Below, piece after piece: positions 1 to 62,027 of a DNA stretch of 64,000 nt. Positions within the stretch are counted from its first letter, which is position 1; each line of letters starts with the position of its first letter. The translations under genes and the position numbers were made by a program. The stretch is taken from positions 1 to 64,000 of IMG/VR virus record IMGVR_UViG_3300050343_000150; one strand, written 5' to 3'. The notes under the pieces were generated by a model that saw only the letters and a program-made list of their open reading frames with translations, searched no databases and had not been told where the DNA came from. This stretch comes from a virus.

Positions 1-2273
1 AAAGTACTTAGTGTATTATTGAATGATGAAGCAGTGTTTGCTTCCTTTATTCATTATGCTATGAGAAGTCACAGTTCTGCTTTACCAAAAAAAGCATGGG
101 AGGAGTCAGAATTAAAACCTGATGAAATCACTGATGGTGCTAATGGATTAGATATATCACCCAAAGATATTCCATTGTATATTATAGAACATTATGGAGA
201 CGATAAAGATAGTAAGCGAGTTAAGGGTAAGTTTGGAAATGCAATGAAACTATTAGAGCAAGTATATCAAAGTCAATATTCAGAGGAAAAGTGGGAAAAC
301 TTAGAAGATTTAGATATTGCTAAATCTGAACAAGAAAAAAAAGCAGGTATAGATTTTATTAAACCTAACAAACCAATGTATCGGATTTTCGAGATAGATG
401 ATATTAGATGACATTAAAAGGGGTTAACGTGGAGAGTTTGTTGTTCAAGAAAAGTACGATGGTATGAGAATACAAATTCATAAAGTTCAATGATGAAGTT
501 AACTATATATTCCTTACAATCAAAAGGATATTACTTCTAAATGTCCAGAACAAGTTAAGCATATGGAAAAGAAACAGTTTGGAGATTGTATCCTTAGATG
601 CAGAATTACTGTTGTTTATGGAAGATGAACCGTTACACCGAGCAGATACTATCACTCATGTATTCCACAGAAAAAACAGAAGGCACATTGAAGGCTCACG
701 TTTTTGATATTATGTTACACGAAGGTAAAGATATTACAGACGATACTCCATTAAGAGAAAGAATTAATATTTTATTATATCAATACGCTCAACATTCCTC
801 AGAAAAACTAGCATTCCCATCTAAGAAAGATACTAGAATTGCTGACTCAAAGAAAGAAGTTGAAAACTATTCTCAAGATATTATGAAACTACCTGCGTCA
901 GAAGGTGTGGTTATCAAAGACATTGAATCTACATATTACATAGGAAATAGAAAAAATCCAAAGTGGATTAAGTGGAAAAAATTTGTTGATTTAGATGTTA
1001 GTGGTTTTAGACGATAGAAAGACAAAAAGTAATCTACATTCTTATACTATGGGAATCGGCCCTGTTACAGCAGAAGTTGCTAGAAACTATTCTACTGTTG
1101 AATTATGAAGATAAAGCATATTTAGAAGTTGGTAAGGCTCTCAACACTAAAATAAATGTTGACATTGGCTCTATTGTTAGAGTTAAAGTTGATGAAGTAA
1201 CTAAGAAGAAAAACGGATTCAGTTTGTATTCTGCCAAAGTAATAGAATTACCGGAAGTAACACAATCTGATAATATTGCTACTTTAGAAAAATTAGCAAG
1301 CAAAAGTAAGAAATCTCTTAGCACTTTAGTACAGGGTCTTGCAGGTAAAGTTCCTAAGCCATTTAGAATTATGAGTGGTATGGAATCCGATTTAGTAAAA
1401 CCTAAAAAACTTAAGAAAGGATATTATATTACAGATGATACGCACGGTGTTGCTGAAATAATATTAAAGGAAAATTTAGAAGGCTATACTTTATATGGAT
1501 TTGAGGGCGATAATTTAATGGAGAAAAATGCTCTGCATAATATTGATTTGTGGAAAGAAGAATTAAATCAATTAATAAAAAGTAAACGTTCCGAATTAAG
1601 AATATCAATTCGTAATGAAATATTAGATAGTGGTAAAGATGCTCTAGAGTTTGATAAAATATTACTATTTGTTAGAAAAAATCATATGGATTTATACCAA
1701 AGTCTTTTTGATTCACTCGAATCTAAATTAATGAATTGGATGAAAAAACAAGATTCGTTCATTTACAAACACCCTAATACTTTCATGTCTAACGAAGAAG
1801 TTTTAGAAAAAGATACAGATGATATGGTTATTCATAAAGAAGAATCTAGAACGGGCGAGTTTACAATAACTAAACAAGAAGACGGCAATCTTAATTTTAT
1901 AATTGATTATAAGAAAAAACGGTTTGCTTGGTTAATAGACATTGAAGATACTGATGATGTGTATAATTTATTTGGTAAATCGAATAAATACCCTGCTATT
2001 GTAGCAGAAAAAATAAACGGTGGTAAAGTTATAGACAAGGGAAATGTTATTCTAGGAGTCCAAAAGGATGGCTACCATGAATATAAATTAGAAGGAGATA
2101 AGTTCGACACTAGAATACACGTTAGAGTAGTGCCTCTTAATGAGAAAAAAACATGGATAGTTTGGACAGGTAAAAAACAAGATATGTTGAAGGATGAAGA
2201 TGACGTAGATGTTTGGAATATTCAAGAGGATAAATATTCCAATTTAGAATTTCCACCTAAAATTAACGATTAG
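1..2273 (+). CDS. Large head-module protein with ATP-dependent DNA ligase domain and C-terminal LigD-phosphoesterase-like domain (5' truncated, broken by indels)
   Basis: Reading across frameshifts: motif I VVQEKYDGMRIQIHK at ~440-484, VFDI (IIIa), EGVVIK (IV), KWIKWKK (V), OB-like EVGKAL...VRVKVDEV; joins ORFs 19-411, 598-1017, 1077-2273. Confidence 0.8.
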
Positions 2274-6421: not shown

Positions 6422-7090
6422 ATGTCAGTAATGGCGGGCTTCGCTATTCTATTAGTAGAAGGTATGAATAAAGTTTACCAAAGATTACATTCTATACCAT
6501 TTGGGGTATATGGAGCAAGTAAAGCAGGTAAAACTACATTACATCATCAATTAAGAACTAGAGGTGAAGTTCCTTCTATTACAGATAGAACCGTAGGGCT
6601 ACATAGAGCCTCAAGAAAATATGTAAAATTAGACGGTGATGCTCATACTGTTAAAACTGCTGATGTCGGAGGTGAAACAGTATTTTGGCAAGAGTGGGTA
6701 GAAGATATGAGAACTCGAAAAGTTAAATATATAATTTTTATGTTAGATGATAGACATATGGATAAGCACTATGATATAGAACAACAATTATGTTGGACTT
6801 TTTTGGTAGATACTATTTGTAGTCCTTATTGGAATATTGGCGGAAAAAGAAAAAAGAAAAAGTTACATGATTATCCCGTAGCAGTTGGTCTTTGGGCTAA
6901 CAAACATGATTTGTGGAAAGACAAATATGATTATGAAACAATAGAAAAACATCCAATATTTGAATCCTTTAGAAATGGTATGCAGAAGTTAAATGATAAA
7001 GGAATACCATGCTACAAATATATAGTAAGTGCCAAATCTGATTCAGAGATGGTATATAGAGGAATCCTAACAATGATAAAGGACTACTAA
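6422..7090 (+). CDS. Arf/Sar-like small GTPase (Ras superfamily)
   Basis: G1 GASKAGKT, G2 DRTVG, G3 DVGGE, G4 ANKHD, G5 SAK; hydrophobic N-terminal helix; GGTGA RBS. Confidence 0.9.
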   Translation: MSVMAGFAILLVEGMNKVYQRLHSIPFGVYGASKAGKTTLHHQLRTRGEVPSITDRTVGLHRASRKYVKLDGDAHTVKTADVGGETVFWQEWVEDMRTRKVKYIIFMLDDRHMDKHYDIEQQLCWTFLVDTICSPYWNIGGKRKKKKLHDYPVAVGLWANKHDLWKDKYDYETIEKHPIFESFRNGMQKLNDKGIPCYKYIVSAKSDSEMVYRGILTMIKDY

Positions 7091-8504: not shown

Positions 8505-9806
8505 ATGAGTGTAGATGTTAATATTTCAAATGTCCAAGACCCCGGAATAAGAAATGAATATCAATTAACCAAAAATGAAGTAACTTCTGCAAATATTGCA
8601 AATATTGGAAAAGATGATGCCAGTAAATTGTTAGGTCAGTTAGTAAAATACATTTTTATCAATGCCAAAGGAGCATTTAAGGATGCATCAAAGGCACAAC
8701 GAGTGCAAACAGAAGTCCCATTAATTTTACAACTACCTTCAGATGCTTTTGATTCAGATGAAGAATTATCTTCATATAAAGAATATATGAGAACCTTACT
8801 AGAAAAGGCTGGAGATGTCCCTATTATTACGGCTATTGAAAAAATAGAAGAAATAAAAGGAGCGTTTGCTATACTAGGAGCAAAATCAAAAAATAGTGCG
8901 CATCAAAAAATAGAAGAAAAGAATATAACTTTTAGAGAATTAATTACTTCTCCGGAAACCTTTGGATATCAATATGAAGTAGGAGCAGGAGAAAAAGAAG
9001 AAACTATTGTCGAAAACAAAAAAACCACTAATCTGATGAATGCAATAGATAAAGGAGAAAGTCTATTCGAAAGAAATAGAGTTGAAGATGCTATTAAAGT
9101 TGAACCCGGACTTGTTAAATTAAGCATTCGTGATTATTATGCTAAGATGTTTAAGGATTATGGATTTGGGGATATACGAGTTCAAGGTGGTTCTCCATTC
9201 AAAATACTAATACATAATGCCGACATTAAAGAACTAACGGATAAGGTCTTTGAAGCATTAGAAGTAGTTGACTATAAAGATACCATAAAAGCAAATGGTG
9301 TTAAAACATATTCAAAAGGTAAAACGGAACTTGTTGCTGAAGAGGGTAAAACAGTTAGAAGATTAAAAAGAAATACAAAAGGTGCAGTGATAGTAGATAT
9401 TGATGAAGTAAATGACTTCAAGGATAAATTACTTAAAGAAAGTACGCAGGTAGCGAAAGAATATTTATCTTTAAACGCAGAGCGTTTACTTGGACCTTAC
9501 ATGCAATCTACAACTTCTTCGGGTACTTCAGTAAATAGACAGATTTTATTAGGAGATATTAGTGTAGAATTTAACATTAATGAAATTTTACTAAACGACT
9601 TAGTTGAGAAATATAGTACTAGTAAAAGAGAACTGACTAACAAAACACCTAACCAATCTGAAAAGGGATTAATTCCATTTACTATTAAAGTTAACATCGA
9701 TGAGAAACTCATGGCTTCAGAAGGAGTGTTTCCTGATATGGAAGAAAGTAGAACTATCGGTGGTATTAAACGAGGTTATGCCTCATTACGGAGAATGGTA
9801 TCATGA
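8505..9806 (+). CDS. Hypothetical protein (433 aa)
   Basis: Long ORF with ATGA overlap onto next gene; no motif recognised. Confidence 0.65.
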   Translation: MSVDVNISNVQDPGIRNEYQLTKNEVTSANIANIGKDDASKLLGQLVKYIFINAKGAFKDASKAQRVQTEVPLILQLPSDAFDSDEELSSYKEYMRTLLEKAGDVPIITAIEKIEEIKGAFAILGAKSKNSAHQKIEEKNITFRELITSPETFGYQYEVGAGEKEETIVENKKTTNLMNAIDKGESLFERNRVEDAIKVEPGLVKLSIRDYYAKMFKDYGFGDIRVQGGSPFKILIHNADIKELTDKVFEALEVVDYKDTIKANGVKTYSKGKTELVAEEGKTVRRLKRNTKGAVIVDIDEVNDFKDKLLKESTQVAKEYLSLNAERLLGPYMQSTTSSGTSVNRQILLGDISVEFNINEILLNDLVEKYSTSKRELTNKTPNQSEKGLIPFTIKVNIDEKLMASEGVFPDMEESRTIGGIKRGYASLRRMVS

Positions 9807-19501: not shown

Positions 19502-22500
19502 TTATGGCTAAGACAAATGGTACAATTACATATCCTTTAAAGTCGGGAGTTTTAACTTCAGATGCCAATGAAGCATATGGTAGTTTAACAACTGAATTTA
19601 CAACAAATAAAGCGTTCAAGGATGTTTCTATAAATCCTGTTCTGAAAACTACATATTTAGAATCAGAACATACAGGCACTGGTTCGGCTACTTCTGACGT
19701 AGTACCTTCTGTAATATTCACTGAAATTAGAAAAGCCCCACATGCAGGTAGTGTTTCTAATGATAACACTAGTAGTATAGGAAATAGAATATTACCAACA
19801 AATACCACAATAACTAGTTATTCTACTAATAAAGAAATTACTCCTTCATTCAAAATTAGAGTTTATGATAGTAAAATTTCTGATTCCGAAACAAATAGAA
19901 AGTTTGTTTATTCTACTGATGACTCCCCTGCGTCTGATACTCTTGGAATTGATATTGATAACTATGATTATTTTATTATGATTAATCCTGAAATTTATGA
20001 TTCTACTACTAGGCAAGATTCTGTTAGACCACATTTTGCTAAAATTACTACAATAACTACTTTTGACACGTTTGGAGACGGATTAGAATTTACTCCAAAA
20101 TATACTGGAACTATCCCTAAAGATACTAATTTTGAAATATACAAAGGACCACATAAAATAAATGATAGTGATATTGTTGCAGTTAGTTATGGGTTAAGAG
20201 GGGATAATTTGGCATCAACAAATAATTATGATGCAATTAATATTGTCGCTACTCCAACATTTTATTTCTATAATGAAAGATTAGAACAAGAAAACCAACT
20301 AGATTATATGGAAAAATATACTCTAACTAGACTAAGATGGTTTTCTACATTAACTAACATAACTATTACTGATACAGATGCACATGCTAAACATCAAGAA
20401 GGTAGTGGTACTGTAAGATTCGAAGTTGCTAATTCTGCTCACACAAATATGTTATGTGAAGGAATGTCTATATTTAATAGTAGTAATATTTTCTTAGGTA
20501 ACATAAAAGATATTACTGGTAACTTTTTCCAATTAGATTTTGCTAGGGTTGTAATAACTGGAAGTACCAGCAATAATCAAGTCTATAAAATTGGTAAAGG
20601 AATACAAAATATAGTTTTTAGAACAGAGTCTAACCTAAAAGGAACATTTACTAATTTAGGAAAAGGTAACTTAGATATCACATTAGTTGATAATTTAAGA
20701 AATGCTGACGATATAGACAGTAATTTTAATCCTTTATTTTGGCACACTGCATTTACTAATATGAAAAGACATGAGTTAGATAGTACGACTCCTACTGCAA
20801 ACGATGCGAATAATTTTGATGGAAAGATGAATGGTCCTTCAAGATATATTACTTCTGACCCTCGACCATTAGTTGGGATATTGTTCCTTTTGTTGGCGAC
20901 AGGATAATAAATAGTCCAAAAAACAGAATAAGTCAAATAGCCAAGGTGGATATAGGCAATCAATCCGGTATGGTATTGAAAAAATACACAAATGGTCAAA
21001 AAATGGTAGTTTCTAATTCTGTTTTTAATGATAATACACGTAAGAAAATACTACCATTTACTGCATCTAAAGTGTCCGGTAGTAACACTATTAGACTAAA
21101 CGATTTAGATAGTGCATATGATTATAAATTATCAGGTAAAATTACTACAAATACAATGCTAATAATAGATAATAGATTTTATGTTGTTGATGCAGTAAAT
21201 AATAAAAGTGGAACACATCAAGATATTACGGTTAAGGCAAGTAAAATTATCTTTCCTCCTGTTAATACATTTACCGTTGCAGGGACAGTTCATGAGTTTA
21301 CAAATGAGTCTGTTTACATATTATCTTGGTCAGGAGTATTGAATACAGAAAAATTTGATTCAGATACTCAAGTACATTATTCTGATAATAATAGGCTAAC
21401 TATTTCCGGTGCAACTATACAGAAGGAGGAGAGTAAATTCTACGACACAAGAGTTGTTTATGCAAATTTACCTTCACATTTGAATAAAGTAGATTACATA
21501 GATAAAGACATGGGCTATGTTAAGTTTCAAGATGCTGATAGAAAATTTTACCAAGACAATACTATTAGTCGATTTTATTATTATGATGGAGCATTTTCTT
21601 TACAAGAAGAAATATTTAATGGGACAATTGAAAAAAGTGACAGCCTACAAACACAACAACCCACTGCTAGATTAGAAGGTAGAGATACTGCTTCAGCATT
21701 GTTAAATTCGACTGTAAATAAAAATTTATCTTATTCTGAAGATATAATTCATAGTACCATTAATCCAGTAATTCCATATTCTTTAACTGAAAGTCTAACT
21801 AATGTATCTGTTAGTGGTAAGGTGATAACTCATAGTTCCGGAGATGGGTTTACGCCGACTAAATATACATTATTATTTACTAGAACTAGTGGAATTTTTA
21901 TTGGTGAAGTTGCTTCGGCTACATCTACTGCAATAACATTAACCCATCGTCCGTTAATTAATATGAGTACTACTACTAACATCTACTACTATGACCCGTT
22001 TATAGAACCAACTTATGTTTCCGGAACAAAGGCCATCGGTAGTAATCCAGTACTAACAACAAGAACAACTGATTTTTCAAGTATTAGTGATAAAGGATTA
22101 ATATTTCAAGATAGTTTTTCCTTCGATAGAAATTTGAATAGAACTAGACTAGAAGGAACATCTAATTCAGGTTCATATTTATCTAATCGAACATTGGGGT
22201 ATGATGTTGCTAAACCAATTAGCATTAACACATTGAGTAGTGATGTTAGTTCTGATGATTCTACTTTTGCAATACAACTATCAAATGAGTTAGGAGCATC
22301 AACCACAGCAAAAAATTTCATGTCGTTTTCTTCTGAAAGATTTGATGTAGTTGAAATAATTGAAAAAGATAATGGTGAAACTACTTTGAAAATTGCTCCT
22401 ATTGTACCAATAGTTATGGGTAGAATAGAAAATAACACACTGGATACTAGGTCCAACTTTTCATTATATTTAATAAATAATAATCTTAATAGTGGAGGTT

Positions 22501-25500
22501 TTATTCATAGAATAGACTCTCAAGTAGATACTGGTAATTTAGATTCTATTAGTTCAGATGACCTATGGACTCCTAGAGAAACATTCCGATATTGGGACTT
22601 ACAGAAATTCAATGCGGGTACTCTAACTAGAAAAGGAGATGATATGTATGGCAAAACTCCTAGTTTACTGAAAGGATATAGTATTGCTTATCCAATTAAA
22701 GGAAACGGAGATGCTTCATCGGCAACTGTTTCAACTACTACTAAACCTCTTTTGGGTAGTAATTTAGTCATAGATGAAAATTATACTTTACTTAATGCAA
22801 TTAATAGTCCTTGGAGAAACTTAACTTGGGACGGAACTTCAACACCCATAGTACCACCATTTGAATTAGCACATAGTGGTGGGACGGCTGGCGCGGTGGT
22901 TACTAATAAAACAGTTTATAATGCTAAAAAAATACTAAATTATGATGGTAAAGCACAAAATTATGAATTGTTATCTACTGGAGATTTGTTTCCATATTCT
23001 AAATTACGATATAATAACATCGGCAGTCAACCACTAAATTATAATGACTTATCTTGTGTGTTAGAAAGTGAAAGTGCGACTTCATCAACTATTACATCTC
23101 ATTCCGAATATATAGGAAGTAGTAGTATGTCTGAGACTAAAGATAGTAATTATGAACGAATGTCAATTAAGTCTGCTAATAAGACTACTAATGAAATAAA
23201 AAGATTCGGAATTGCTAGATTAGTAGAGGCTACGTTTGATTGGCACTTTAATCCAGTAGATTCTGATAAGTTACAAACTGCTGAAAATATAGAAAATGAT
23301 TTAGTTGGATATCAAATGAGTAGAGCAAGAGCAAATTATAATGAACTAAAATTGACGCGAAGTGGGGGTTTAAATCATGCTCTTTCCGGATATAGCGGTA
23401 GTATATCTTTTGATACAGGAGACTGTATATTTGAGGCTAGTACTGGTAAAATGTTGTTGATGGTGAAGAGTGCGTTTACTTACAGTAGTGGAAGTACCAT
23501 AACTAGTTCAAAATATTTTCACGTTAATTACACTACCTCGGAGTGGAGTAGTGGTGCTAAAAATGTATATGTGGTACATGAATATACTGACTTATCTCAT
23601 AGACTAAAGACGTTTACTAACGGGTTTCAAGACCCAATCAATTCTACTGATTTAAGAAAAGACCTGTCTAGTGTATTTTTAATTAGACCTAATTATGTTT
23701 CTGAAGATGATAAATTTAAATATGCTTTACTAGAAAATGGAGACTCAGAAAATTTTAATCCACCCAATATGTTCATTCCATTTGTATTCCAAGCAGGGGA
23801 AAACGTCACTAGTACTCCTGATATGGAAGATTTTAATCAAAGTCCCTTTCACCCTGATGATGAGTGGAATTCTCTGTTAAACAACCATGCGTATAGACAT
23901 AGTTCTAGAGTTATCGCTGCTTTGCTACAAAACAGACATAGTACTGCTTCTTTAACTCATATAGATAAATTCGGATTAGATGAATATTCTCATCTATATG
24001 AAAACTGTATTGCGGTATTTAGAAACATTAGACAACTCAGTAGTGTAGGACCGGATGTTTCGAATATACAACAAACAAGTGCTATACTTGGTAGTCGTCA
24101 AGAACATGCAGCATACGTTGATTATGCTGATAGTGGACTTACGGCAGGAAGGCGTGACCAGCATACAGTAAACACAATGGTTTGGAGAAATTCTGCTACT
24201 AGTAGTATAGGGTATGCTATTTCAGGCTCACACACTAGAAGTGGGCAGACAAATCCCAATAACCAAACTTTTGCAGACGGCGGTACTCGTTATTTCTTAG
24301 AATCTAAAGAAGGAAGTAAACTTAGTACTACTAGACATTTATATCATACTGAACCATCTGAAAATGATGGGGGTGGATTATACAAAGCACAGATGTTGGT
24401 TAAACCAGTATTGAATATGACAGATGCTAATATTACAAATGGTACGACTGTAACGATAACAGTTGATATAAATGACGCTGATTCTGCTCACACATGGTTA
24501 AATTTTGTTCCGGATTTAACAGGATATTATTTAGTTTCAGAATCTAGTATACATTCTAAATCAGTGACCTCATTAGGAGTAAATGATGTTACCCCAAATG
24601 ACGCAACTAATCTTAGTTCTTATAATACTATAAATACAACTTTTATCGCTAAAATACTTTCGCACACTAGTAATCAAACGACAAATGATGACTTAGCCTT
24701 TGTACATACTATTGTATTAGACAAAGCCCCTACAACTTACAGTAGTCCTAGATTTAGATTAATGAGATTTGCAGAAACAACATTTAGAGATACACCCAAC
24801 GAAATAATAATCAATAGGTTATTTGATACTGGATTAGATTATTCGACCAAAACCTCACATTTTATGACAGGAGAAAATGAACTACAAAGACTTGCAGGTA
24901 TTACTGACTATATGCAAGAAGGAGTGTTTAGTATGTATGTTTTAGTTAACACTGATTCTGCTCCTAATACTAATAATGAAACACATCAAATGGTTATTTC
25001 CGAAAATTATGTTCAGGCATTTAATAGACTACCATATAATGATGGTGACACTTTCGAATGTTATGTTACTGATGGTAATAACTCTGAACAAAAGAATATG
25101 ATGGTTAGTTATGGAAGCCCAAGTTCACTATTAGGAATACGTAGAGGGGAGTTAAGATTAATTTATGACGGAGTACTAAATGGTGATGGGTTAGTTTCTT
25201 TTGGTGAAACTGTAAATCTTGATTTGGCTAGGAAGCCTTTATTGAGTAATATAACTAAGTGTCATATAGGTTCTAGTATTATTGTTGGAGATGAGATAGA
25301 AATAGAAATGGAGAGGGTAATTAAAAATTCAAACTTAGAAACTAATATTATTCAAAGTCAATCAGAATTTACTGGGAACATTGTTAGTTCAGTATCTAAT
25401 AATGTGATTACTTGTAAAGCAACAGTTCAAAATATCTTAGACGGCGATATACTCTATACACATGAAGGACATCCGATAGGGAAGGTTTCAGGAGTATCAG

Positions 25501-26408
25501 GGACTACAATAACTATTGAAAACGTCCACGATGATACTGATATCGATTTGTGGTATGTTCCTTCAGTAAATGACGAACTAATAAAACGAGATAAAAAAAC
25601 TTTCATTGCCACAAATAATTTTACCCAAGTTCCTGCGTTTGATGCTTTGAATTCATTAGCATCTAAAAAAGGGTTAGATTTTACAATTAAAGGTAAAAAA
25701 GTAATATTTAGAAACGTTAATGATACAAGCCTATTGCGAAAACAGACGATTTCTTATAAAAGCCATAAAATAATAAGTATAGAAAAGTCTACTTCTATGT
25801 TTGCGAAAGCAGATATTGTTACTGTTATTGGAGATAGAATACAAGCAACTGCAAATAGTGGAGTAAGAATAGAAGATGTTCCTAAACAAATAACTGTTGT
25901 TGACCCAACTATTAGAAATATTTCTGATGCTAAAATTAAGGCTGGAGAAGTTTTACAATTACATCAATCGGATGCTGAAATGATAACTTTACGTATTTTA
26001 AGAGAAGGATTAGAAACCTTAGAAGCAGGAGATGTAGTTTATTTAGACTTTCCTAGACAAAACATTAAGCCAAATGACTACATGATATTTGAGATTGAAA
26101 ACGTACTTTCACCTATTTTAACTATGACAGTAGGTACATTTAACAAAACTATTGCTGAACGTTTGTCTGAAATAAATACCCAACTTAGAACATCTAATGC
26201 TACAACATATTCAGTAAATAGCGAAATAGTTGGAGGGGGCATTTATCTACAAGATTCTATATCGTTAAAGACTACCTTAGTAGAGTACACGATAACTGGT
26301 ACGGGGGAGACATCTAATTTAGGTTTCGACGACGTATTTGGTTTTACAGAAGAAGTAGGGTTTGAAACAGGGACAGTAGTAATAAGTTCGTATAGTAGTG
26401 AGGATTAA
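19498..26408 (+). CDS. Very large tail tip/baseplate hub-like protein (probably one gene broken near 20870-20950)
   Basis: ORFs 19498-20907 and 20946-26408; IFNGTIEK...LEGRD and C-terminal LEAGDVVYLDFP...YMIFEI...MTVG typical of Tal/hub proteins. Confidence 0.6.
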
Positions 26409-26410
26409 AA

Positions 26411-26770
26411 ATGACAGTAGTAAATGAAGGATTAAATGCAATTGCAACTTTACTTGCATCGGAATATACAGTGATAGCAATTGGTGATGGTCGAGATAGT
26501 ACGTCTGCTTCACATACAGGACTAAATAATTGGATAGCACAAAAAACAGGAATAACTCCTACTGTTACTGGTACAACATTGACATATAATGTTAGTTTTA
26601 CAGGAAGTGAAATACCTGCTTCCGGTGTGGCAGAACTTGGTGTTTTTGCTACTGGAACAACAAATGGAAACGGCACTTTATTGAGCCGAGTTACCTTCAC
26701 GTCTACTGGTGTTGTCGGGGCAAGCGATACTGTTGCGTTTACAATTAGAATAGAGGTGGGTAGAGAATGA
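26411..26770 (+). CDS. Small tail/baseplate structural protein
   Basis: VVNEGLN...IAIGDG...ELGVF...LLSRVTF pattern seen in fibre-anchoring proteins. Confidence 0.6.
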   Translation: MTVVNEGLNAIATLLASEYTVIAIGDGRDSTSASHTGLNNWIAQKTGITPTVTGTTLTYNVSFTGSEIPASGVAELGVFATGTTNGNGTLLSRVTFTSTGVVGASDTVAFTIRIEVGRE

Positions 26771-29700
26771 GTTCAAATCCGGGTATAATTTCAACACTTA
26801 GTAGTAACCCAACGGGTGTACAATTAGTAGATGGTACAGACAATATACACTCAGGTATTATCAAGGCTTTACATGCTGCTACTGGTGAAAATCGAGCAAT
26901 AAGTGGGTTTAATTTAACACAGACTACATCTAGTGGTCGAACTGCCTTTCAAGTTGCAGCAGGTATAGTACTTAGGAATGGTAAAGTTATTTCTGTTACT
27001 GGTGGTCTTTTATCAACTACAACAGCCCAAATTTCTGCTAATAGTGTAGATTGGTATGGTGTTATTGTTGTGGCATCTGATAACTCCTTAGCGTGGAGAT
27101 TTGGTGCAGTAACAGGAAAAGCAAATGCATCTACGTCAACTGTTGCAGAATTAGCAACTGGTGATATTCCAGTTATTGTTGTAAAAATAGATTCTGCTGA
27201 AGCAAATAACTCAACTTCTAGATTACATCAATATGTAGGATATACTCAAACAGATAGAGAATTTTCTGCAATAGATAATAATGTAGAAAGGTTGAGAATA
27301 AACAAGGGAGGCACATTAACACATATTCCTAGTTCTACTGCATATACACTAACACTTCCTTCTTCGACTGGTACATTAGCATTAACTAGTCAAGTAACTA
27401 ACATTGGCACTAGTGCAATATCAAATGATGCTATTACTGCTGCTAAATTAGCAGATAATGCAGTTCTTACTACTAATATTCTTAATGCTAATGTAACCAC
27501 TACTAAATTAGCAGACGATAGTGTTACGTATTCAAAGATTCAAAATCTCTCAACAGGTAATAGAGTATTAGGAGCGACTAGTGCTGGATTGATTGGAGAG
27601 GTTCAAGTTGCTACGGATATGATATCGGACGGGGCTATTACTTCTGATAAAATAAATAACGGTACTATTGCTACTACTGATATCGCTAATGATGCAATAA
27701 CATACGCCAAGATACAGAATGTCTCTGCTACAAACAGGATACTTGGTAGAGACTCTTCAGGAGCAGGAATTGTTGAAGAAATTACCCCAACTAATTTGTT
27801 AACTATGTTAGGTGTAGAAGCCAGTGCAGACGTAACAGACACGACGAATGTTAGGGCTGCTCTACATAATGCAAATTTAGGAACTTTTAGTCTTGGTGAT
27901 ACGAATGATAACATTAGTGTTGGCAATTTAACTATTGGTGGGAATCTAACAATTTCAGGAAGTACAACCACAGTTAACTCAACTACTGTTAACATAGGAG
28001 ATAGTATAATTACTCTTAACTCAGATGAAACTGGGACTCCTTCAGAAGATGCTGGTATAGAAATAGAGAGAGGAAATCAAACTAACAAGACGTTATTTTG
28101 GGATGAGAGTGCTAGTAGATGGACAGTTGGGAATGAGACTTTTGTTGCAGGAACTTTTATTGGAAATGTAACTGGCACAGTATCTTCCGCAGGTGTATTA
28201 TCTACCGCTAGAAATTTTGCACTCACAGGTGATGTAACAGCATCTGCTGTTTCCTTTAATGGGTCAGGTGATGTTTCACTTTCAACTTCACTTTCAGATG
28301 GTACAATTACAACTTCCAAAATAGCCAACAATGCTGTCACTGCTGCTAAATTAACTGGCAATTCTGTTGTCAATGCTTCAATCGCAACTAATGCAGTTAC
28401 CACTGCTAAAATAGCAGATGATGCTATTACTACGGCTAAAATAGCAGATGATGCTATTACCTCTGCCTTGATTGCTGATGATGCTATTGTGTCTGCACTA
28501 ATAGCAGATGATACAATAACTAGTGCTTTAATAGCAGATGATGCTGTTTTAAATTCACATTTAGCAGGAAGTATTTCTCAAAGTAAAATTACAGGATTAA
28601 CTTCTGCGCTGTCGGGTAAACAATCAACCTTAGCATTTGGTAATGCTTTAACTAACACTAGTGGAACTGTTAATGTTGATATCGATTCTCTAAGCATTGA
28701 GACTGGTATTGACTTGAGTAACGATTATCTGATGTATGATGATGCGACAAATGGACTACGAAGAATTAATTTATCTACAATATTTAGTAAATTAAACGCA
28801 TCCCATATACCTAATTTATCTGCTAGTAAGACAACTAGTGGTGTATTTAACATAAGTAGAATACCGGATATGTCTACTAGTAAAATAACTAGTGGAACAT
28901 TTTCAACAGCAAGAATCGCAAACGATGCAGTTACTTTTGATAAAATACAAAATATAGGAGATACTGTAATATTAGGTAGACAGACTAGTGGTTCAGGAAG
29001 TATAGAAGCGTTGAATGCTTCACAGGCTAGAGCAGTATTAGGGGTAGATACAGCAGGAACAGATAATTCTACCAACGTTACTTTAGCAGGAACTAGAAAC
29101 TATCTTACAATTAGTGGGCAAACAATTACTAGAAACGTTATAGATATCGGGGATGATACTAATTTAGTTGCCGGTAGTCGCATTAGTTTAACCGGAGATA
29201 CATTAAATGTAGATGGAGATTTGGCTAATTATGATAACAGTAACAGTGGATTCTTAACTGCCCATCCCACTATTAGTGGGGCAGCATCTTCTGTTAATAA
29301 TGACGGTAGGACATATATACAAGATATTACATTAGATTCTAATGGACACATTACCGCAATAACATCTGCTACTGAAACAGTAACAGATACTCAATATAGT
29401 GTGGGGGATGGAGGTCTTACCGAAAATAATTTTACTGATACATTGAAAACTAAATTAGATTCAGTAGATAGTAATTCTAATTATTATACTCTACCCATTG
29501 CTACTTCTTCTGCATTGGGTGGTTTTAAGGTAGGTAGTAATTTATCAATTAATTCTATCACCGGAGTTTTATCTGCCGATACCCAATCTGACGTTAATTT
29601 TACTTCTGCACTAAATACTAAATTATCAGGAATAGCAACTAACGCTACTGTTGGTGCAAATTGGGCAACTAACGTTTCAAATATCTCAGTAACGAATAGC

Positions 29701-32700
29701 CAATTAGCAGGTAGTATAACAAATGCAAAGTTGGCTAATTCAACAATTACACTGAATGGTAGTTCTATTGCCCTTGGTGGAACTGCTACTTTAACCACCT
29801 CAAATATAGCAGAAGATTCAAACTTATATTTTACTGATGAACGAGTAGATGATAGGGTTAATGCTTTACTAACTGAAGGAGAAGGAATCACTACTACATA
29901 CAATGATGGTGGGGGAGCATTAACAATTTCAGCAGAAGACGCTACTTCTTCTAACAAGGGTATTGCTTCTTTTGCAAGTGCTGACTTTGATGTTAGTAGT
30001 GGAGCAGTTACCGTAAAATCAGGAGGAATAAGTAATACTCAACTTGCTGGCTCTATCGCTAATAGTAAGTTATTAGATATTGCCCAAAGTAAAGTAACTG
30101 GATTAACTTCTACATTAAATACTAAAGTAGAAACTCTTAGTGATTTGAGTATAACTGCTTCTGCCGCAGAGATAAATATACTAGATGGAGTAACGGGAGT
30201 ATCTGCAACCGAAATAGGACACCTCGGTGGTGTTACTTCTGCAATTCAAACACAACTAAATGCAAAACAGGCTAGTGGTAATTATTTAACTACATCAGCA
30301 TCACTAACTTCTTTAGCAGATGTTAATGAATTTGACCATGATTTTAGTAGTATAAGTGCTAACCATGATTCAGTACCATCAACTAAAGCCGTCAAAACAT
30401 ATGTTGATTTGATATCATTTGATGCAAATGATACACAATATGCTTTCTCTGTTGAAGACACCGCCGATGTAGGTACTAAGAAATTAAAACTGACAGGAAC
30501 AGATGGCTCATTTACTTCGGTAAATTTTGAGGGGTCAGGAGCAATATCTGTCACAAGAATCAATGAAAGATTATTAATTACATCTAACCAACAAGCAGTT
30601 AATGCTGCAAATTTTGCAAATAATACATTAACCTTGACGAAAACTGATGGAAGTACATTGACTACCACAATTAATACTACGTCAACTGCTTCTGAAGTAC
30701 GTGCATTAGTAGAGTCAGCATTAGATTCAAATGTATTTACTGATGCAGACCATACTAAATTAAATGGTATTTCTACTAGTGCAAATAACTATTCAATTTC
30801 ATCAGATTTACTAGACGAAGATAATATGGTTTCTAATTCAGCAACTAAAGTTGCTAGTCAACAGTCAATAAAGGCTTATGTTGATACAGAAGTGGCGGGG
30901 GTCATTGCTTCTGCTCCTGCGGCATTAGACACACTTAATGAGTTAGCAGCCGCCTTAGGAGATGATGCTAATTATGCTACAACAACTTCAACTGCATTAG
31001 GTAACAGATTACGAGTTGATGTTAACAGTCAAGGACTTAATGCTACACAACAAGCAAATGCTATAACAAATTTAGGCATTACACCTAGTTTAGCAGAAAT
31101 AAATATTCTCGATGGAGGATTGTCTGCAAGTGATATACCAAATTTAGCCGCATCTAAAGTTACAAGTGGTACGTTTGCAACAGTAAGGATACCGTCACTT
31201 TCTGCTTCAAAGATTACTAGTGGTACGTTTGCAACTGCGAGAATTGCAGATGATGCGATTACAGTTGATAAGATAAATGGTCTTACCGATTTAGGTAGTG
31301 GGACAGTTATTAGTTCATCAGAACGGACTAAACTATCCGGAATTGAAACGTCAGCAGATGTAACGGATGCAACTAATGTTGCGGCGGCAGGGGCTGTAAT
31401 GGATGGAGACTTTAGTAGTAATGGATTCATGAAAAGAACAGGCGCAGGAAGTTACACTGTTGACACTAATACATATCTAACTGCTCATCCTAATATTTCA
31501 GCCGCTAGTAGTAGTAACAATTCAGGAAGAACATACATTCAAGATATAACATTAGATTCTAACGGTCATGTAACAGGCATTGCAACTGCAACAGAAACAG
31601 TAACTAACAGTGATACTCAGTTAACCCAAGAACAAGTAGAAGACTATGTGAATGGATTGATTGTTGCAGGTACAAATGTAACTAAAACATATGACGATGT
31701 AGCAGGGACTTTAACCATTGCTTCCACTGGAAAAACACAAGAAGAAATTGAAGATATTGTATCAAGTTTAGTTGTTGCAGGAAGTAATATCACAAAAACA
31801 TATGATGACTCAGCAGGAACTTTAACTATTTCCTCGACAGATACTAATACTCAATTAACTCTTTTAGATGAAGATAATATGGCTACTAATAGTGCCACAG
31901 CAGCAGCATCACAACAATCTATCAAAGCCTACGTAGACACTGAAGTAGCAAGTTTAGTAGATTCTGCTCCGGCTACCTTGAATACATTAAACGAATTAGC
32001 AGCCTCTATTGGTGATGACGCTAACTTTTCTACTACAATTACAACTGCGTTGGGTAATAGAGTTAGAACAGATACTGCTAGTCAAGGGTTAAACTCCACT
32101 CAAAAATCAAATGCTAGAACTAATATTGGTGTTGATGTTGCCGGGACAGATAACTCTACCAATGTAACTTTGGCTTCTGTTAGTAATAATTATTTAAGTA
32201 TTTCAGGACAGGCTATTACTGCTGGAACTATACCTTTGACTCTAGGAGGTACAGGAGCAACATCTGCTTCTGCTGCTAGAAGTAATTTAGGGTTGGGGAC
32301 AGCAGCAGTCTTAGCAGGTAATGGTGCAATCGCTAATGGTAATGCAGGTTTAGTTACAGGAGATGTGGTTTTTGATTATATAACATCACAAGGGTTTGGT
32401 TCGGGTAACGGAGACATTACTAGTGTAGTAGCAGGAACTGGACTTAGTGGAGGTGCAACAAGTGGAGATGCAACACTAAATGTAGATGCTGCTCAAACAC
32501 AAATAACTAGTGTTGGTACTCTAAGTAATTTAACAGTTTCAGGAGATGTTACTGTTGATAGTACGACGTTTAAGATAGATACTACAAACAACCGTGTCGG
32601 TATCGGAACATCAAGTCCCGGCTACAAATTACAAGTAGAAGGTTCATTTGCTGCGCAAACTAAGTCTTTCGTTATCCCACATCCTACACAAGAAGGAAAG

Positions 32701-32997
32701 ACATTACAACATGGTTCTCTTGAAGGGCCGGAACATGGGGTATATCATAGAGGTAGAATAACTGGTAGTGATAACATGGGAGTGTCAATAGAACTCCCTG
32801 AGTATTGGGAAGAATTAGTTGATGAAGAAACAATTACAGTACAATTAACTGCAAATGGTGAGTTTCAAATGTTATATGTAGAAAAGATAGAAGACAACCG
32901 CGTGTTCGTAGGCAATGCAGCAGACGAGGGCGTTGACTGTTTTTACATAATACATGGTGAAAGAAAGGACGTTGGAAAGATGGAGGTTGAATACTAA
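26767..32997 (+). CDS. Long tail fibre protein 1 (2076 aa)
   Basis: ADDAITTAKI repeats, APAALDTLNELAAALGDD modules, RVGIGT; C-terminal KSFVIPHP..LQHGSLEGPE..IELPEYW domain common in marine phage fibres. Confidence 0.85.
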   Translation: MSSNPGIISTLSSNPTGVQLVDGTDNIHSGIIKALHAATGENRAISGFNLTQTTSSGRTAFQVAAGIVLRNGKVISVTGGLLSTTTAQISANSVDWYGVIVVASDNSLAWRFGAVTGKANASTSTVAELATGDIPVIVVKIDSAEANNSTSRLHQYVGYTQTDREFSAIDNNVERLRINKGGTLTHIPSSTAYTLTLPSSTGTLALTSQVTNIGTSAISNDAITAAKLADNAVLTTNILNANVTTTKLADDSVTYSKIQNLSTGNRVLGATSAGLIGEVQVATDMISDGAITSDKINNGTIATTDIANDAITYAKIQNVSATNRILGRDSSGAGIVEEITPTNLLTMLGVEASADVTDTTNVRAALHNANLGTFSLGDTNDNISVGNLTIGGNLTISGSTTTVNSTTVNIGDSIITLNSDETGTPSEDAGIEIERGNQTNKTLFWDESASRWTVGNETFVAGTFIGNVTGTVSSAGVLSTARNFALTGDVTASAVSFNGSGDVSLSTSLSDGTITTSKIANNAVTAAKLTGNSVVNASIATNAVTTAKIADDAITTAKIADDAITSALIADDAIVSALIADDTITSALIADDAVLNSHLAGSISQSKITGLTSALSGKQSTLAFGNALTNTSGTVNVDIDSLSIETGIDLSNDYLMYDDATNGLRRINLSTIFSKLNASHIPNLSASKTTSGVFNISRIPDMSTSKITSGTFSTARIANDAVTFDKIQNIGDTVILGRQTSGSGSIEALNASQARAVLGVDTAGTDNSTNVTLAGTRNYLTISGQTITRNVIDIGDDTNLVAGSRISLTGDTLNVDGDLANYDNSNSGFLTAHPTISGAASSVNNDGRTYIQDITLDSNGHITAITSATETVTDTQYSVGDGGLTENNFTDTLKTKLDSVDSNSNYYTLPIATSSALGGFKVGSNLSINSITGVLSADTQSDVNFTSALNTKLSGIATNATVGANWATNVSNISVTNSQLAGSITNAKLANSTITLNGSSIALGGTATLTTSNIAEDSNLYFTDERVDDRVNALLTEGEGITTTYNDGGGALTISAEDATSSNKGIASFASADFDVSSGAVTVKSGGISNTQLAGSIANSKLLDIAQSKVTGLTSTLNTKVETLSDLSITASAAEINILDGVTGVSATEIGHLGGVTSAIQTQLNAKQASGNYLTTSASLTSLADVNEFDHDFSSISANHDSVPSTKAVKTYVDLISFDANDTQYAFSVEDTADVGTKKLKLTGTDGSFTSVNFEGSGAISVTRINERLLITSNQQAVNAANFANNTLTLTKTDGSTLTTTINTTSTASEVRALVESALDSNVFTDADHTKLNGISTSANNYSISSDLLDEDNMVSNSATKVASQQSIKAYVDTEVAGVIASAPAALDTLNELAAALGDDANYATTTSTALGNRLRVDVNSQGLNATQQANAITNLGITPSLAEINILDGGLSASDIPNLAASKVTSGTFATVRIPSLSASKITSGTFATARIADDAITVDKINGLTDLGSGTVISSSERTKLSGIETSADVTDATNVAAAGAVMDGDFSSNGFMKRTGAGSYTVDTNTYLTAHPNISAASSSNNSGRTYIQDITLDSNGHVTGIATATETVTNSDTQLTQEQVEDYVNGLIVAGTNVTKTYDDVAGTLTIASTGKTQEEIEDIVSSLVVAGSNITKTYDDSAGTLTISSTDTNTQLTLLDEDNMATNSATAAASQQSIKAYVDTEVASLVDSAPATLNTLNELAASIGDDANFSTTITTALGNRVRTDTASQGLNSTQKSNARTNIGVDVAGTDNSTNVTLASVSNNYLSISGQAITAGTIPLTLGGTGATSASAARSNLGLGTAAVLAGNGAIANGNAGLVTGDVVFDYITSQGFGSGNGDITSVVAGTGLSGGATSGDATLNVDAAQTQITSVGTLSNLTVSGDVTVDSTTFKIDTTNNRVGIGTSSPGYKLQVEGSFAAQTKSFVIPHPTQEGKTLQHGSLEGPEHGVYHRGRITGSDNMGVSIELPEYWEELVDEETITVQLTANGEFQMLYVEKIEDNRVFVGNAADEGVDCFYIIHGERKDVGKMEVEY
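28411..28560 (+). repeat. Five tandem 30-nt coding repeats (IADDAITTAK-like)
   Basis: atagcagatgatgctattac and variants at 28411, 28441, 28471, 28501, 28531. Confidence 0.85.
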
Positions 32998-47065: not shown

Positions 47066-47492
47066 TTTTATTCCTCTGTGTCATTACTTTTGTTAAATCT
47101 TGCATAAAGATATTCATGCAATCAACACATGTACAATCTTTACTATGTTGTTTAATTTCAACAACGGTAGTATTCATTTTTTTCGCTTCTTCGATTAGAT
47201 TTGAAGGAGGTTTTGATATAAGTGTAATTACACCTTTATCATAAGTCAATCCAATATATTCTCTTGAATCAAAGAATATATTTTGTTTCTTATCACGATT
47301 AACTATTACTGTTTTATTTTTTCTAGATGATAGTTTTGTTTTAACCTTACCAATATCAGACTTAATTTCTTTTTTATAGAAAGAAAACCAGTCTTTAATC
47401 CATGTTGAAAAAGAAGATGTGCGTTTTTTTATATTATCCACTCTTCTCTTATTAGTCCATGATAGACTACTGTATAAATTATCTAAAACCAT
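47058..47492 (-). CDS. Hypothetical basic protein with HxxxCxCxxC
   Basis: 144 aa ORF overlapping both neighbours. Confidence 0.5.
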   Translation of the reverse strand: MVLDNLYSSLSWTNKRRVDNIKKRTSSFSTWIKDWFSFYKKEIKSDIGKVKTKLSSRKNKTVIVNRDKKQNIFFDSREYIGLTYDKGVITLISKPPSNLIEEAKKMNTTVVEIKQHSKDCTCVDCMNIFMQDLTKVMTQRNKNE

Positions 47493-48364
47493 TCTTCCAA
47501 ACTCCTTTGATTAACGTCTCGCATAATTTGTAGTGTGTTCCATCCCATTGCATTGAATACTGGTTCAGCCTTTTTAACGACTGATTCAGCATAATGTCTC
47601 CAATCAGGAGTAAACTGATTGAATTTATCTGCCGTTAATAGTGAAATATAGTTAGGAACAACTGTTTTACCAGTTATTGGATTATAGTAATTATTGTTAC
47701 AATCCTTGATTCTAATATAAAGATAAGAATCTTCTATTGGTTCATATCCTAATTTATGGTTGAATAGTACACCTTCAATACCCGAACCAATTGTGGGTCT
47801 TTTTCCACCAATAGTTTGGAAGGACTTGGGTGCAGCACAACATTCTTCTTCCATTAATTCAAAAATTGTACTTGTCTTTCTACAATTTTGACAGACAACC
47901 TTAAATCTTTCTTCGCGATATCTACTTCGCTTGATAATATCTGATAATGGTATCTGTCCATGCATAACAGAATTATATTTCTCATTTAAGTAAGAAACTA
48001 TTTCTTGTTCAGGTATATTGTTAACCCATTTTTTGAGAAGACTGATTTGCGTTTCCTTGGCTAATTTAGTTGAAGAAACTCTTTTAGCAGTGAAACCTGT
48101 CATAACAAATTCCTCTTCTTCTAAGAAGTCCCCATCTTTCCAAGTAATTAACCCTGCATTTCTATTTTTAGTAGCCCCTACACCTAATGATTTGAAGTAT
48201 TTTTCAAATTCTAAGGTTACAGGATGTTCTTTCAGACCCATAACATTGGGAAATAGTTCTCTAACATGTTCATTTAACACTACTAGTGCTTTTTCGGCAG
48301 TTTCAATGTTATTATCTTCTATTTTTACATAAATAGAATCAGTATGTCCATACACTACCTTCAT
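47483..48364 (-). CDS. polB: Family B DNA polymerase, C-terminal subunit
   Basis: VVYGHTDSIYV (motif C), LEFEKYF, KNRNAG, CQNC..CC insert, C-terminal QRSLEEWF PIP box. Confidence 0.88.
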   Translation of the reverse strand: MKVVYGHTDSIYVKIEDNNIETAEKALVVLNEHVRELFPNVMGLKEHPVTLEFEKYFKSLGVGATKNRNAGLITWKDGDFLEEEEFVMTGFTAKRVSSTKLAKETQISLLKKWVNNIPEQEIVSYLNEKYNSVMHGQIPLSDIIKRSRYREERFKVVCQNCRKTSTIFELMEEECCAAPKSFQTIGGKRPTIGSGIEGVLFNHKLGYEPIEDSYLYIRIKDCNNNYYNPITGKTVVPNYISLLTADKFNQFTPDWRHYAESVVKKAEPVFNAMGWNTLQIMRDVNQRSLEEWF

Positions 48365-61852: not shown

Positions 61853-62027
61853 CGATTATTTCATGCGTGATTCCATCCATTGTTGCGCCTACGACACTTA
61901 GTGCATCTTCTAACACAGTTCTTCGCACTACATTCCTCAACTGTGGTAGTTTTTCGTATTCTTCTATTACCATACTAAAATGGTATTGCATTTTCTTTAG
62001 TGTTTGTATTATATTATCTTCCATCAA
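61770..62027 (-). CDS. Hypothetical protein
   Basis: 85 aa; coupled to tfb stop. Confidence 0.5.
   Translation of the reverse strand: MMEDNIIQTLKKMQYHFSMVIEEYEKLPQLRNVVRRTVLEDALSVVGATMDGITHEIIDAWRHQQQQKIYYGDNENEQKENKDRN

Follow-up and report, generated by a model that had tools for sequence, protein, structure and literature searches.

A small GTPase with an Arf-like predicted fold encoded beside two membrane proteins in magroviruses

In eukaryotes, vesicle budding is driven by Arf-like GTPases that bear a membrane helix at the N-terminus; these proteins are a focus of work on the origins of eukaryotic membranes, and Sar1 deforms membranes with its own N-terminal helix. Vargova et al. name a membrane-binding helix upstream of the G domain as a hallmark of the Arf family, and the interswitch toggle, in which the register shifts by two residues between the GDP and GTP forms, is the defining Arf mechanism (bioRxiv 10.1101/2024.02.28.582541). 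For the euryarchaeal GTPase ArvA/OapA (HVO_3014), Mills et al. found Arf to be the best HHpred family, and an operon joining ArvA to ArvB (PF09846) and ArvC (PF09845) occurs in >90% of ArvA genomes (PMC10927574). Magroviruses are abundant viruses with tails, and their assigned hosts are archaea of Marine Group II, the Poseidoniales (PMC5434244). The stretch of DNA analyzed here, called the window, is the first 64 kb of the 91.7-kb IMG/VR virus record IMGVR_UViG_3300050343_000150, which is estimated to be 93% complete and belongs to a magrovirus. The subject of this report is one open reading frame (ORF) of the window, at 6422..7090 (+), which encodes 222 amino acids (aa) from an ATG start, with the stop codon included in the coordinates (ORF listing).

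Sequence and predicted structure together indicate that this ORF encodes a Ras-superfamily small GTPase with an intact G domain. We favor, with moderate confidence, the reading that the protein is an active GTPase of a family found so far only in magroviruses, that it has a fold of the Arf/Sar1/SRbeta/Galpha branch, and that it acts with two adjacent transmembrane (TM) proteins, TM1 and TM2, as a membrane switch for a late event at the membrane. The predicted fold and several signatures are Arf-like; membership in the Arf clade is unproven. An Arf-like GTPase outside the Asgard archaea is not new in itself, because euryarchaeal ArvA has Arf as its best remote family, and the premise of a sequence-only reading of this DNA, that Arf-likeness is confined to eukaryotes and Asgard archaea, is dated in view of that work (PMC10927574). 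What is new is the carrier, a group of tailed archaeal viruses, together with the absence of a detectable cellular donor, a family-specific insert and long interswitch, and membrane proteins as partners. The gene is Arf-like and strongly conserved in an archaeal virus group that ranks among the most abundant in the ocean. It extends the few Arf-like GTPases known from outside eukaryotes and Asgard archaea by a branch that viruses carry, and it offers a concrete candidate for the means by which tailed viruses of archaea affect the membrane of their host in the late phase of infection. Small and soluble-looking, the GTPase is accessible to biochemistry though the host is uncultured.

All five G-domain motifs were found in the protein (GASKAGKT, T57, DVGG at 81-84, NKHD and SAK; Table 1), and they are invariant or nearly so across the family. 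The sequence-only reading had listed the P-loop, RTVG, DVGGE, a Trp, YIIFMLD, LWANKHDL and SAK, and each was located by script in the translation of 6422-7090. In a 50-sequence alignment (A1), residues G31, G36, K37, D81, G84, D109, N160, K161, W165 and G194 are invariant, W92, D95, R99 and the S203/A204 pair are nearly so, and D163 is kept in 49/50. An AlphaFold2 model built with this alignment shows a G domain with a mean per-residue confidence (pLDDT) of 91.1 and a predicted template-modeling score (pTM) of 0.87. Because of the invariance in the 50-sequence alignment and the confident G-domain model, the GTPase motifs lie far above chance.

By alignment and model, the G domain carries three family-specific additions, namely an N-terminal helix that is hydrophobic and then basic, a longer switch I/interswitch, and a polybasic insert before strand 5. 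The helix covers residues 2-22 in the model (DSSP; pLDDT 71-80), and an N-terminal extension of like character occurs in all subfamilies. A hydrophobic helix of about 22 aa at the position of the Arf/Sar1 helix had been read from the sequence; the model and the alignment of this helix with the N-terminal helix of the Asgard ArfR 8oun bear that out, while its amphipathicity is not above that of shuffled sequences. The helix is hydrophobic then basic rather than demonstrably amphipathic. Hydropathy analysis found no 19-residue hydrophobic window at the N-terminus, so the helix is too short for a transmembrane span, and a transmembrane anchor at this end of the GTPase was rejected. The insert was also correctly noticed beforehand: the polybasic GGKRKKKK is present within aa 134-152, the insert is modeled as a beta-hairpin (residues 136-145, pLDDT about 94), and both subfamilies keep its basic cluster and the Pro that precedes strand 5. 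In matches to solved GTPases, in which 161/200 residues align, the insert stays unaligned. The C-terminus, ...GILTMIKDY, has no Cys in its last 11 residues and hence no C-terminal lipid-anchor or prenylation site.

The suggestion of a viral lineage of Arf-like GTPases in viruses of non-Asgard archaea gained support, in that the protein is a real small GTPase of a large viral family. A collection of 5.8 billion proteins yielded 364 homologues at E<=1e-3, mostly from marine metagenomes and on contigs of up to 104 kb, and the profile search of this collection gave close family members only among the matches listed. GTPases of the window type are encoded on at least 555 IMG/VR viral contigs. A divergent second subfamily, of ~240 aa and about 30% identical, is encoded on 81 further viral contigs, the longest of 118 kb. 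On one of them there is also a gene for a thermosome subunit, which marks magroviruses of group A (PMC5434244). A third GTPase type occurs on 4 more viral contigs, and the family totals >640 IMG/VR contigs, all of them viral. The two main subfamilies are colinear over their whole length, insert included. Within the window's group the GTPase is the best-conserved gene of its block, at 78-98% identity compared with 50-85% for neighboring genes, 66-83% for the prohead protease and 30-97% for the other genes, and the pairwise ratio of nonsynonymous to synonymous substitution rates (dN/dS) is 0.017-0.095. Purifying selection on the GTPase family is thus strong.

When 1.84 billion representatives were searched exhaustively with HMMER, 59 proteins were returned, each either a fragment or a divergent relative of full length (26-38% identity). 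Neither these representatives, which provide the one test for a homologue in the host, nor scans of cellular genomes yielded a cellular homologue. A scan of 185,579 species genomes gave matches only on contigs of one 'Maricaulis' metagenome-assembled genome (MAG), and the A1 profile gave marginal P-loop matches only in 401 Pseudomonadota genomes. A tblastn search of 50,697 GenBank phage and archaeal-virus records with the GTPase returned no match; PHROGs holds no family for it, and none of head, tail or packaging function matched. By sequence searches, the family is so far found only on virus contigs, in magroviruses. The 'MAG: Maricaulis sp.' (genome G001, record NZMJ01; L002, L003, L168-L170) encodes the viral GTPase on three different contigs (E 6e-115, 4e-99 and 6e-65). 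Because one MAG holds three different copies of the viral gene, these are most likely magrovirus contigs mis-binned into an alphaproteobacterial bin.

The sequence-only reading had also pointed to Glu in place of the catalytic Gln. E85 is present in the window GTPase, and the position is not fixed in the family: among 213 sequences the residue after DxGG is E in 106, Q in 93, H in 7, D in 6 and A in 1. A FastTree phylogeny of 208 sequences requires no fewer than 10 changes between E and Q, compared with 58-71 for shuffled labels. Since all but one of these residues can position or polarize water, the catalytic site looks functional but tolerant. The Ras Q61E mutant has raised intrinsic GTPase activity (PMC2987813), and for that reason the Glu form may, by analogy, hydrolyze GTP without a GTPase-activating protein. 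The Arg directly before the switch I Thr is kept in both subfamilies (R56 in 42/50 sequences of A1 and R60 in 30/32 of the second subfamily), as is the Thr itself (T57 in 43/50 and T61 in 31/32). Given the variable residue after DxGG, this Arg may contribute to catalysis.

Arf, Sar1 and Galpha have in common a DxGG[Q/H] motif with a Trp 11 residues after the Asp (W78 in Arf1). In the viral family, G3 reads DxGG in almost every one of 213 sequences, a few having DxPG instead, and Trp stands at both D+8 and D+11 in 202/213. The traits of Rab, Ras and Rho proteins are missing, as there is no C-terminal Cys motif and G3 reads DVGGE and not the DTAGQ type. Taken together, DxGG with a Trp at +11 and an N-terminal helix instead of a C-terminal anchor point, at the level of sequence, to the Arf/Sar1/Galpha type and not to the Ras/Rab type. 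To this extent, and in its best fold matches, the protein does carry the Arf-family signatures that had been claimed for it; the remainder of the claim is weakened by Arf and SRPRB scores below the Pfam thresholds and by a profile that ranks Rab33B, ArfR, KRas and Arl8 about equally.

The best Pfam match of the window GTPase was SRPRB at 22.2 bits (cut-off 25), followed by Roc at 18.2 (27), Arf (PF00025) at 17.8 (22.3), MMR_HSR1 at 17.0 (21.9) and G-alpha at 9.5 (48.8), and TIGR00231 small_GTP matched with an E-value of 5e-5. Over 50 members, weak Pfam matches (E<0.01) were to MMR_HSR1 in 38, SRPRB in 31, Roc in 26, Ras in 15 and Arf in 14. The by-eye alignment with Arf motifs was overstated in light of the Arf and SRPRB scores, the Ala before DxGG, the Ras/Rab-like SAK of G5 and a 24-residue span from G2 to G3.

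Three profiles were run against all PDB sequences: A1, from the window's subfamily with a few divergent members; A5, from the second subfamily; and A6, balanced and family-wide. A1 returned Rab33B (6.8e-9), ArfR 8oun (1.2e-8), KRas (3.7e-8) and Arl8A (5.5e-8), with only the N-terminal half aligned, and judged by these matches it cannot separate GTPase families. With A5, the only G proteins below 1e-3 were of the Arf family (8oun 1.8e-6, Arl8A/B 1.4-3.3e-4 and 8oum 5.9e-4). A6 placed 8oun first at 37.9 bits, ahead of Arl8A (32.4), Rab33B (31.4) and KRas (29.1), with the N-terminal helix inside the ArfR alignment. The 8oun structure comes from the study of Asgard ArfR (bioRxiv 10.1101/2024.02.28.582541). 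By family profile, the best solved relatives are Asgard ArfR and Arl8, though only narrowly ahead of Rab33B. Additionally, three divergent orphans exceed the Pfam Arf threshold and have Arf as their best family: P0169 with 57.2 bits over nearly the full model, P0157 with 27.2 and P0167 with 26.8. All three are singletons on 1.6-1.8-kb contigs. Among PDB sequences P0169 matched mini-Galpha and Arl3 best, its 60 top matches included neither Rab nor Ras, and searches found no relatives of this orphan.

For the ~30%-identical subfamily, a separate alignment was used to build a second, independent model (pLDDT 91.6). Foldseek E-values did not discriminate, with Rab, Arl, Arf and Ras all at about 1e-10 to 1e-9, and its TM-scores were highest for Arf6 (0.62/0.82), with Rabs at about 0.55/0.70. 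Both models were also submitted to a Foldseek-independent structure search of 48,161 PDB representatives, in which the best 50 entries of each were considered. Arf-family chains head both searches, and the closest structural neighbors are Arf-family members. Z-scores for the first and second model, respectively, were 18.4 and 18.2 for Arf6, 17.6 and 16.8 for SRbeta, 17.6 and 16.3 for an Asgard RagA-like protein, 17.5 and 17.2 for Sar1, 17.0 and 15.7 for a mimivirus Rab, 16.8 and 15.6-15.9 for Galpha, and 15.4-15.9 and 15.0-15.5 for cellular Rabs. Lower values were obtained with the first model for RhoA (15.3), Ran (15.2), Rheb (14.5) and Roc (13.6-14.1) and with the second model for a Ras-like protein (14.4). 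The sole predicted conformer resembles GTP forms with the N-terminal helix released, and from residue 6-8 onward it can be superposed on full-length Arl2, on myristoylated Arf1 and on the GTP form of yeast Arf1.

Grouping with MglA or Roc and a lack of Arf structural features, named by the sequence-only reading as the contrary outcome, were not what we found. No MglA chain was among the best 50 entries of either structure search, which does not by itself exclude families outside those entries, and MglA was rejected since the viral genome encodes no Roadblock/LC7 (MglB) partner (PF03259 without a match at E<=1). Roc-COR (ROCO) proteins were rejected on lower Z-scores, the absence of a COR domain and the sub-threshold Roc score. 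A heterotrimeric G-protein alpha subunit was likewise rejected: the 222-aa model has no domain inserted in switch I, such as the helical domain of G-alpha, and the G-alpha Pfam score is far below its cut-off.

With Arf6, Arf1, Arl1, Arl8 and ArfR (PDB 8oun, 8oum, 8ouk) the viral GTPase has in common DxGG and the Trp at +11, TVG after the switch I Thr (RTVG) and an N-terminal helix instead of a C-terminal lipid anchor, and 8oun is the best solved sequence relative of the family profile, with the N-terminal helix in the alignment. Unlike Arf proteins, the viral protein starts MSV and has no Gly2 myristoylation site, has no Asp at the third P-loop position, admits Glu, Gln, His or Asp at the catalytic position, carries a 19-residue polybasic insert and an NKxDxW motif with an invariant Trp, and is encoded by a virus next to two TM proteins. 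A true Arf lineage, nested in or sister to Asgard ArfR and eukaryotic Arf/Arl/Sar1/SRbeta and using the interswitch toggle to release the N-terminal helix, would explain why 8oun leads the G proteins with A5 and A6 and ranks second with A1, why the N-terminal helices align, and why Arf-family chains lead both structure searches; DxGG with its Trp and the orphans above the Arf threshold fit as well. Among the nearest named non-viral clusters of the ESM Atlas Arf is the commonest Pfam family, a lead only, as some 'bacterial' ones may be mis-binned viral contigs. We nevertheless consider such a lineage unlikely. The window GTPase stays under the Pfam Arf cut-off, the orphans that pass it lack genomic context, Rab33B comes within about 6 bits of ArfR with A6 and first with A1, and the residue before DxGG is not Trp but Ala or Ser (Ala in the window GTPase). 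The span from G2 to G3 (T57-D81) is 24 residues, a Rab length, and about 33 in the other subfamily, whereas it is 19 in Arf1 and 22 in Ras, and HMMER places gaps of 7-14 residues in this stretch against ArfR. Furthermore, ArfR was confined to Asgard archaea and Korarchaeia in the work of Vargova et al. (bioRxiv 10.1101/2024.02.28.582541).

The same stretch aligns with Rab33B, the top PDB match of A1, with a single 1-residue gap that leaves even the 'DG' hairpin turn in place, as would be expected if the family were a fast-evolving generic Ras-superfamily GTPase of Rab/RasL/Rup type whose likeness to Arf arose by convergence or reflects an artefact of structure prediction. The SAK of G5 as in Ras and Rab, the members that match Pfam Ras (15/50) and Roc (26/50), and the near-equal Foldseek E-values agree with this alternative. 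The two independent models and the three profiles, however, lean to the Arf branch, the prenylation Cys is absent from the C-terminus and the anchor is N-terminal, and G3 has DxGG with Trp at +11 in place of DTAGQ; the generic origin is therefore, in our judgement, as improbable as the true Arf lineage.

Sar1 and SRbeta (PDB 1m2o, 2fh5) offer a further comparison. SRPRB is the best Pfam match, and a few viral members have DxGGH like Sar1; in contrast, the SRPRB score is below its cut-off, the virus encodes no COPII or SRalpha partners, and SRbeta is anchored by a true TM helix, for which the viral N-terminus is too short. Among virus-encoded small GTPases, the Rab, Ras and Ran proteins of giant viruses (e.g. 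mimivirus Rab, PDB 5xc5) are the sole viral matches in the best 50 BFVD entries for the GTPase model, which include no prokaryotic-virus protein. These are recent captures by viruses of eukaryotes, whereas the magrovirus family resides in archaeal tailed viruses and has no detectable cellular donor.

The GTPase gene is the third in a tight run on the + strand, TM1-TM2-GTPase-D1-D2-D3-D4, which sits between head and tail genes (prohead protease and tail tube). Spacers among TM1, TM2 and the GTPase are 6-9 nucleotides (nt), with TM2 ending 6 nt before the GTPase start, and GGTGAT precedes the start codons of TM2 and the GTPase by 5-7 nt. The cassette genes recur in 72-79/80 related loci: TM1 in 77/80 (49-100% identity; alignment A4), TM2 in 79/80, D1 in 78/80, D2 in 77/80 (72-98% identical), D3 in 74/80 and D4 in 72/80. 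An alignment of TM2 (A3) has 28 invariant columns, mostly at positions 1-33, and a variable TM helix; this pattern suits a protein-binding surface, and by the positive-inside rule the TM2 N-terminus would face the cytoplasm. In the divergent subfamily the run begins with a two-TM protein that has a charged region and a tail rich in Q/N, continues with a one-TM protein of 73-75 aa and the GTPase, and goes on to a ~300-aa protein and a Q/G-rich MGLFG/MGFFG protein. There, a small ORF abuts the GTPase start in 79/81 loci, and a larger ORF with the two-TM layout precedes it in 70/81.

In the mechanism that we propose, the GTPase would be expressed along with the morphogenetic genes as part of the tight cassette of two-TM protein, one-TM protein, GTPase and small proteins. 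It would cycle on and off the host cytoplasmic membrane by nucleotide state, like Arf, Sar1 and ArvA, and at the membrane it would engage the cytoplasmic parts of TM1 and TM2. GTP hydrolysis, via the Glu or Gln after DxGG, would then time or reverse the association with the TM proteins. We infer the nucleotide-dependent membrane binding, the contact with the TM proteins and the process controlled from gene order and analogy.

The process controlled would most likely be a late membrane event. Phage lysis genes are often placed as this cassette is. Particle release is our tentative first choice, because TM1 has a holin-like layout, the cassette occupies that usual position of phage lysis genes, and the egress machinery of tailed archaeal viruses is uncharacterized, completely so according to an account in which holins are likewise elusive (PMC10791045). 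Membrane-linked assembly or vesicle formation comes second, as a possibility slightly fainter than release. Holins are recognized as small proteins near late genes with >=1 TM helix and a charged hydrophilic C-terminus (PMC10791045), and TM1 fits this layout as a small membrane protein with a charged hydrophilic C-terminus beside late genes. The cassette resembles phage holin lysis cassettes in its small membrane proteins near structural genes and in the two TM helices and highly charged C-terminal region of TM1. The resemblance is architectural only: TM1 has no sequence relation to any holin family in Pfam or PHROG, and there is no endolysin near the cassette. We know of no holin system that includes a GTPase. 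More doubtful still is the bolder proposal that the missing machinery for egress in archaeal tailed viruses consists of TM1, TM2 and the GTPase, with an Arf/Sar1-like switch timing or driving perforation by two holin-like proteins, and that the family is a deep non-Asgard Arf branch carried by viruses; if it were true, viruses would be a reservoir or vector of Arf-type membrane GTPases.

Several observations weigh against the membrane switch that we favor and against its Arf-branch fold. The Z-score margins over the best Rab are just about 1.5-2.5, and the fold ranking may not be fully independent of the sequence signal, because the AlphaFold models may be drawn to the family that shares the DxGG and Trp motifs. 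The hydrophobic moment of the N-terminal helix, 0.37, was reached by 303/2000 shuffles (15%). Membrane binding, TM-protein contact and the egress role would all follow from gene order and analogy, and since the cassette lies between head and tail genes its position is equally compatible with a role in virion assembly. Between the subfamilies, homology of TM1 is weakly suggested by hhalign (probability 14%, E 0.0019) and none was found by hhalign for TM2 (probability 1%). The conserved layout could also be partly coincidental, because small TM genes are common in virus genomes. Homologous partner membrane proteins across the subfamilies were rejected on the hhalign values, and what we claim for the two subfamilies is a conserved layout, not conserved partner families.

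The GTPase might instead have no membrane role and serve virion morphogenesis, in head or tail assembly or as a packaged protein, or reprogram host translation or protein targeting. Its place between the prohead protease and tail tube genes, the helix amphipathicity that does not reach significance, and the standing of SRbeta, a protein-targeting GTPase, as best Pfam match and among the best fold matches would suit such a role. Set against these are the two TM proteins that abut the gene in both subfamilies, the conserved polybasic insert and hydrophobic N-terminus, and the lack of a match to any PHROG head, tail or packaging family, and we regard a non-membrane role as unlikely.

ArvA/OapA, compared here by description, resembles the viral protein as a prokaryotic small GTPase with a weak MMR_HSR1 match, an Arf-like remote profile and predicted fold and an N-terminal hydrophobic helix, and also in its proposed membrane-remodeling role and a gene cluster with small partner proteins; the partners differ, those of the virus being TM proteins. 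PF09846 has no match in the 91.7-kb virus, and the sole match to PF09845 there (15.4 bits, at 55956-56165) has two internal stops and lies far from the cassette. Descent from this euryarchaeal vesiculating GTPase, captured from the archaeal host and driving vesicle-like budding as ArvA does, is the least probable of the alternatives: the weak PF01926 annotation of ArvA is paralleled by MMR_HSR1 as the commonest weak match (38/50 members), Arf as best remote family, the hydrophobic N-terminal helix and an Arf1-like predicted fold are in common, the host is a euryarchaeon in the broad sense, and the small Zn-ribbon protein of the ArvA operon has a counterpart of sorts in the small Cys/His-rich D2 two genes downstream, but the viral genome lacks ArvB and ArvC, which adjoin ArvA in 78-93% of genomes, and ArvA homologues are mostly from Halobacteriota, Methanobacteriota and DPANN among 14 archaeal phyla, with Thermoplasmatota unmentioned in the main text (PMC10927574).

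Table 1. Features of the GTPase and its gene cassette in the window (n=50 refers to alignment A1)
Feature	Residues (aa)	Position (nt)	Strand	Description
TM1	141 aa	5757..6182	+	two hydrophobic helices, then highly charged helix, Q-rich tail; holin-like layout (hydropathy)
TM2	74 aa	6191..6415	+	one TM helix, nearly invariant N-terminal 33 residues, Trp-rich tail
GTPase, N-terminal segment MSVMAGFAILLVEGMNKVYQRL	1-22	6422-6487	+	hydrophobic stretch VMAGFAILLV, then basic/polar residues; putative in-plane membrane anchor
GTPase, G1 P-loop GASKAGKT, inside GVYGASKAGKTTL	31-38	6512-6535	+	G31, G36, K37 invariant, n=50
GTPase, G2/switch I RTVG	56-59	6587-6598	+	Arg-Thr pair conserved
GTPase, G3/switch II DVGGE	81-85	6662-6676	+	D81, G84 invariant
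GTPase, G3/switch II through W89/W92	81-92	6662-6697	+	
GTPase, WQEW	89-92		+	W89 and W92 of switch II
GTPase, YIIFMLD	103-109		+	D109 invariant
GTPase, insert SPYWNIGGKRKKKKLHDYP with polybasic GGKRKKKK	134-152	6821-6877	+	family-specific; between helix 3 and strand 5
GTPase, G4 NKHD within LWANKHDL	160-163		+	
GTPase, G4 with invariant Trp (NKxDxW)	160-165	6899-6916	+	
GTPase, G5 SAK	203-205	7028-7036	+	S203 47/50, A204 46/50
D1	77 aa	7093..7326	+	start 2 nt past GTPase stop
D2	62 aa	7298..7486	+	Cys/His-rich
D3	105 aa	7462..7779	+	
D4	236 aa	7779..8489	+	Q/G/M-rich, begins MGLFG

Searches of Pfam and PHROG with the cassette proteins gave no family for any partner, only sub-threshold noise, D1 and D3 included. 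D2 has a sub-threshold match to zf-MIZ, the MIZ/SP-RING zinc finger (E 0.0056, 16.9 bits, cut-off 33.5), a curious lead given the ubiquitin-like tagging set at 59-64 kb of the same virus. D4 has a BLASTP match at 25% identity in another locus (L167). Directly after the cassette, 8505-9806 (+) encodes a hypervariable protein of 433 aa, with BLASTP matches of 24-27% identity in 3/11 otherwise syntenic relatives, in which its neighbors are 60-80% identical.

Pfam and PHROG matches on the + strand of the window identify a prohead protease of caudoviral type, along with tail tube and tape-measure proteins. Genes for replication and repair of an archaeal type occupy the - strand: ERCC4-HhH and PD-(D/E)XK nucleases, a split family B DNA polymerase (PolB), an ATP-dependent ligase, ThiF, JAB and a zinc ribbon of TFIIB type. 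By gene content the virus is a magrovirus and resembles group B, because PolB is split and a second ligase lies inside the structural module; Philosof et al. describe both features for group B magroviruses (PMC5434244). In the magrovirus literature, as far as it is searchable, the GTPase is not mentioned, and some IMG records of family members bear the automatic label 'GTPase SAR1 family protein'. A scan for sigma-70-type promoters gave 25 sites compared with 28.7 expected, with a consensus that is not informative for an archaeal virus.

The split PolB consists of two genes, a polymerase part and an exonuclease part, at 47483-48364 and 49212-50300 (-), ~850 nt apart, and the split matches that described for group B1 magroviruses. 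The second ATP-dependent ligase is a domain or fragment at 598-1017 (+), perhaps together with 1-411, upstream of the prohead protease, and the full ATP-dependent ligase is encoded at 56730-58262 on the opposite strand. After the tail genes, three consecutive giant ORFs at 20946-26408, 26767-32997 and 32997-38477 (+) encode 1820, 2076 and 1826 aa. Finally, 62024-62893 (-) encodes a 289-aa protein with an N-terminal TFIIB-type zinc ribbon (PF08271, 29.8 bits), which may be a virus-encoded protein resembling archaeal transcription factor B.

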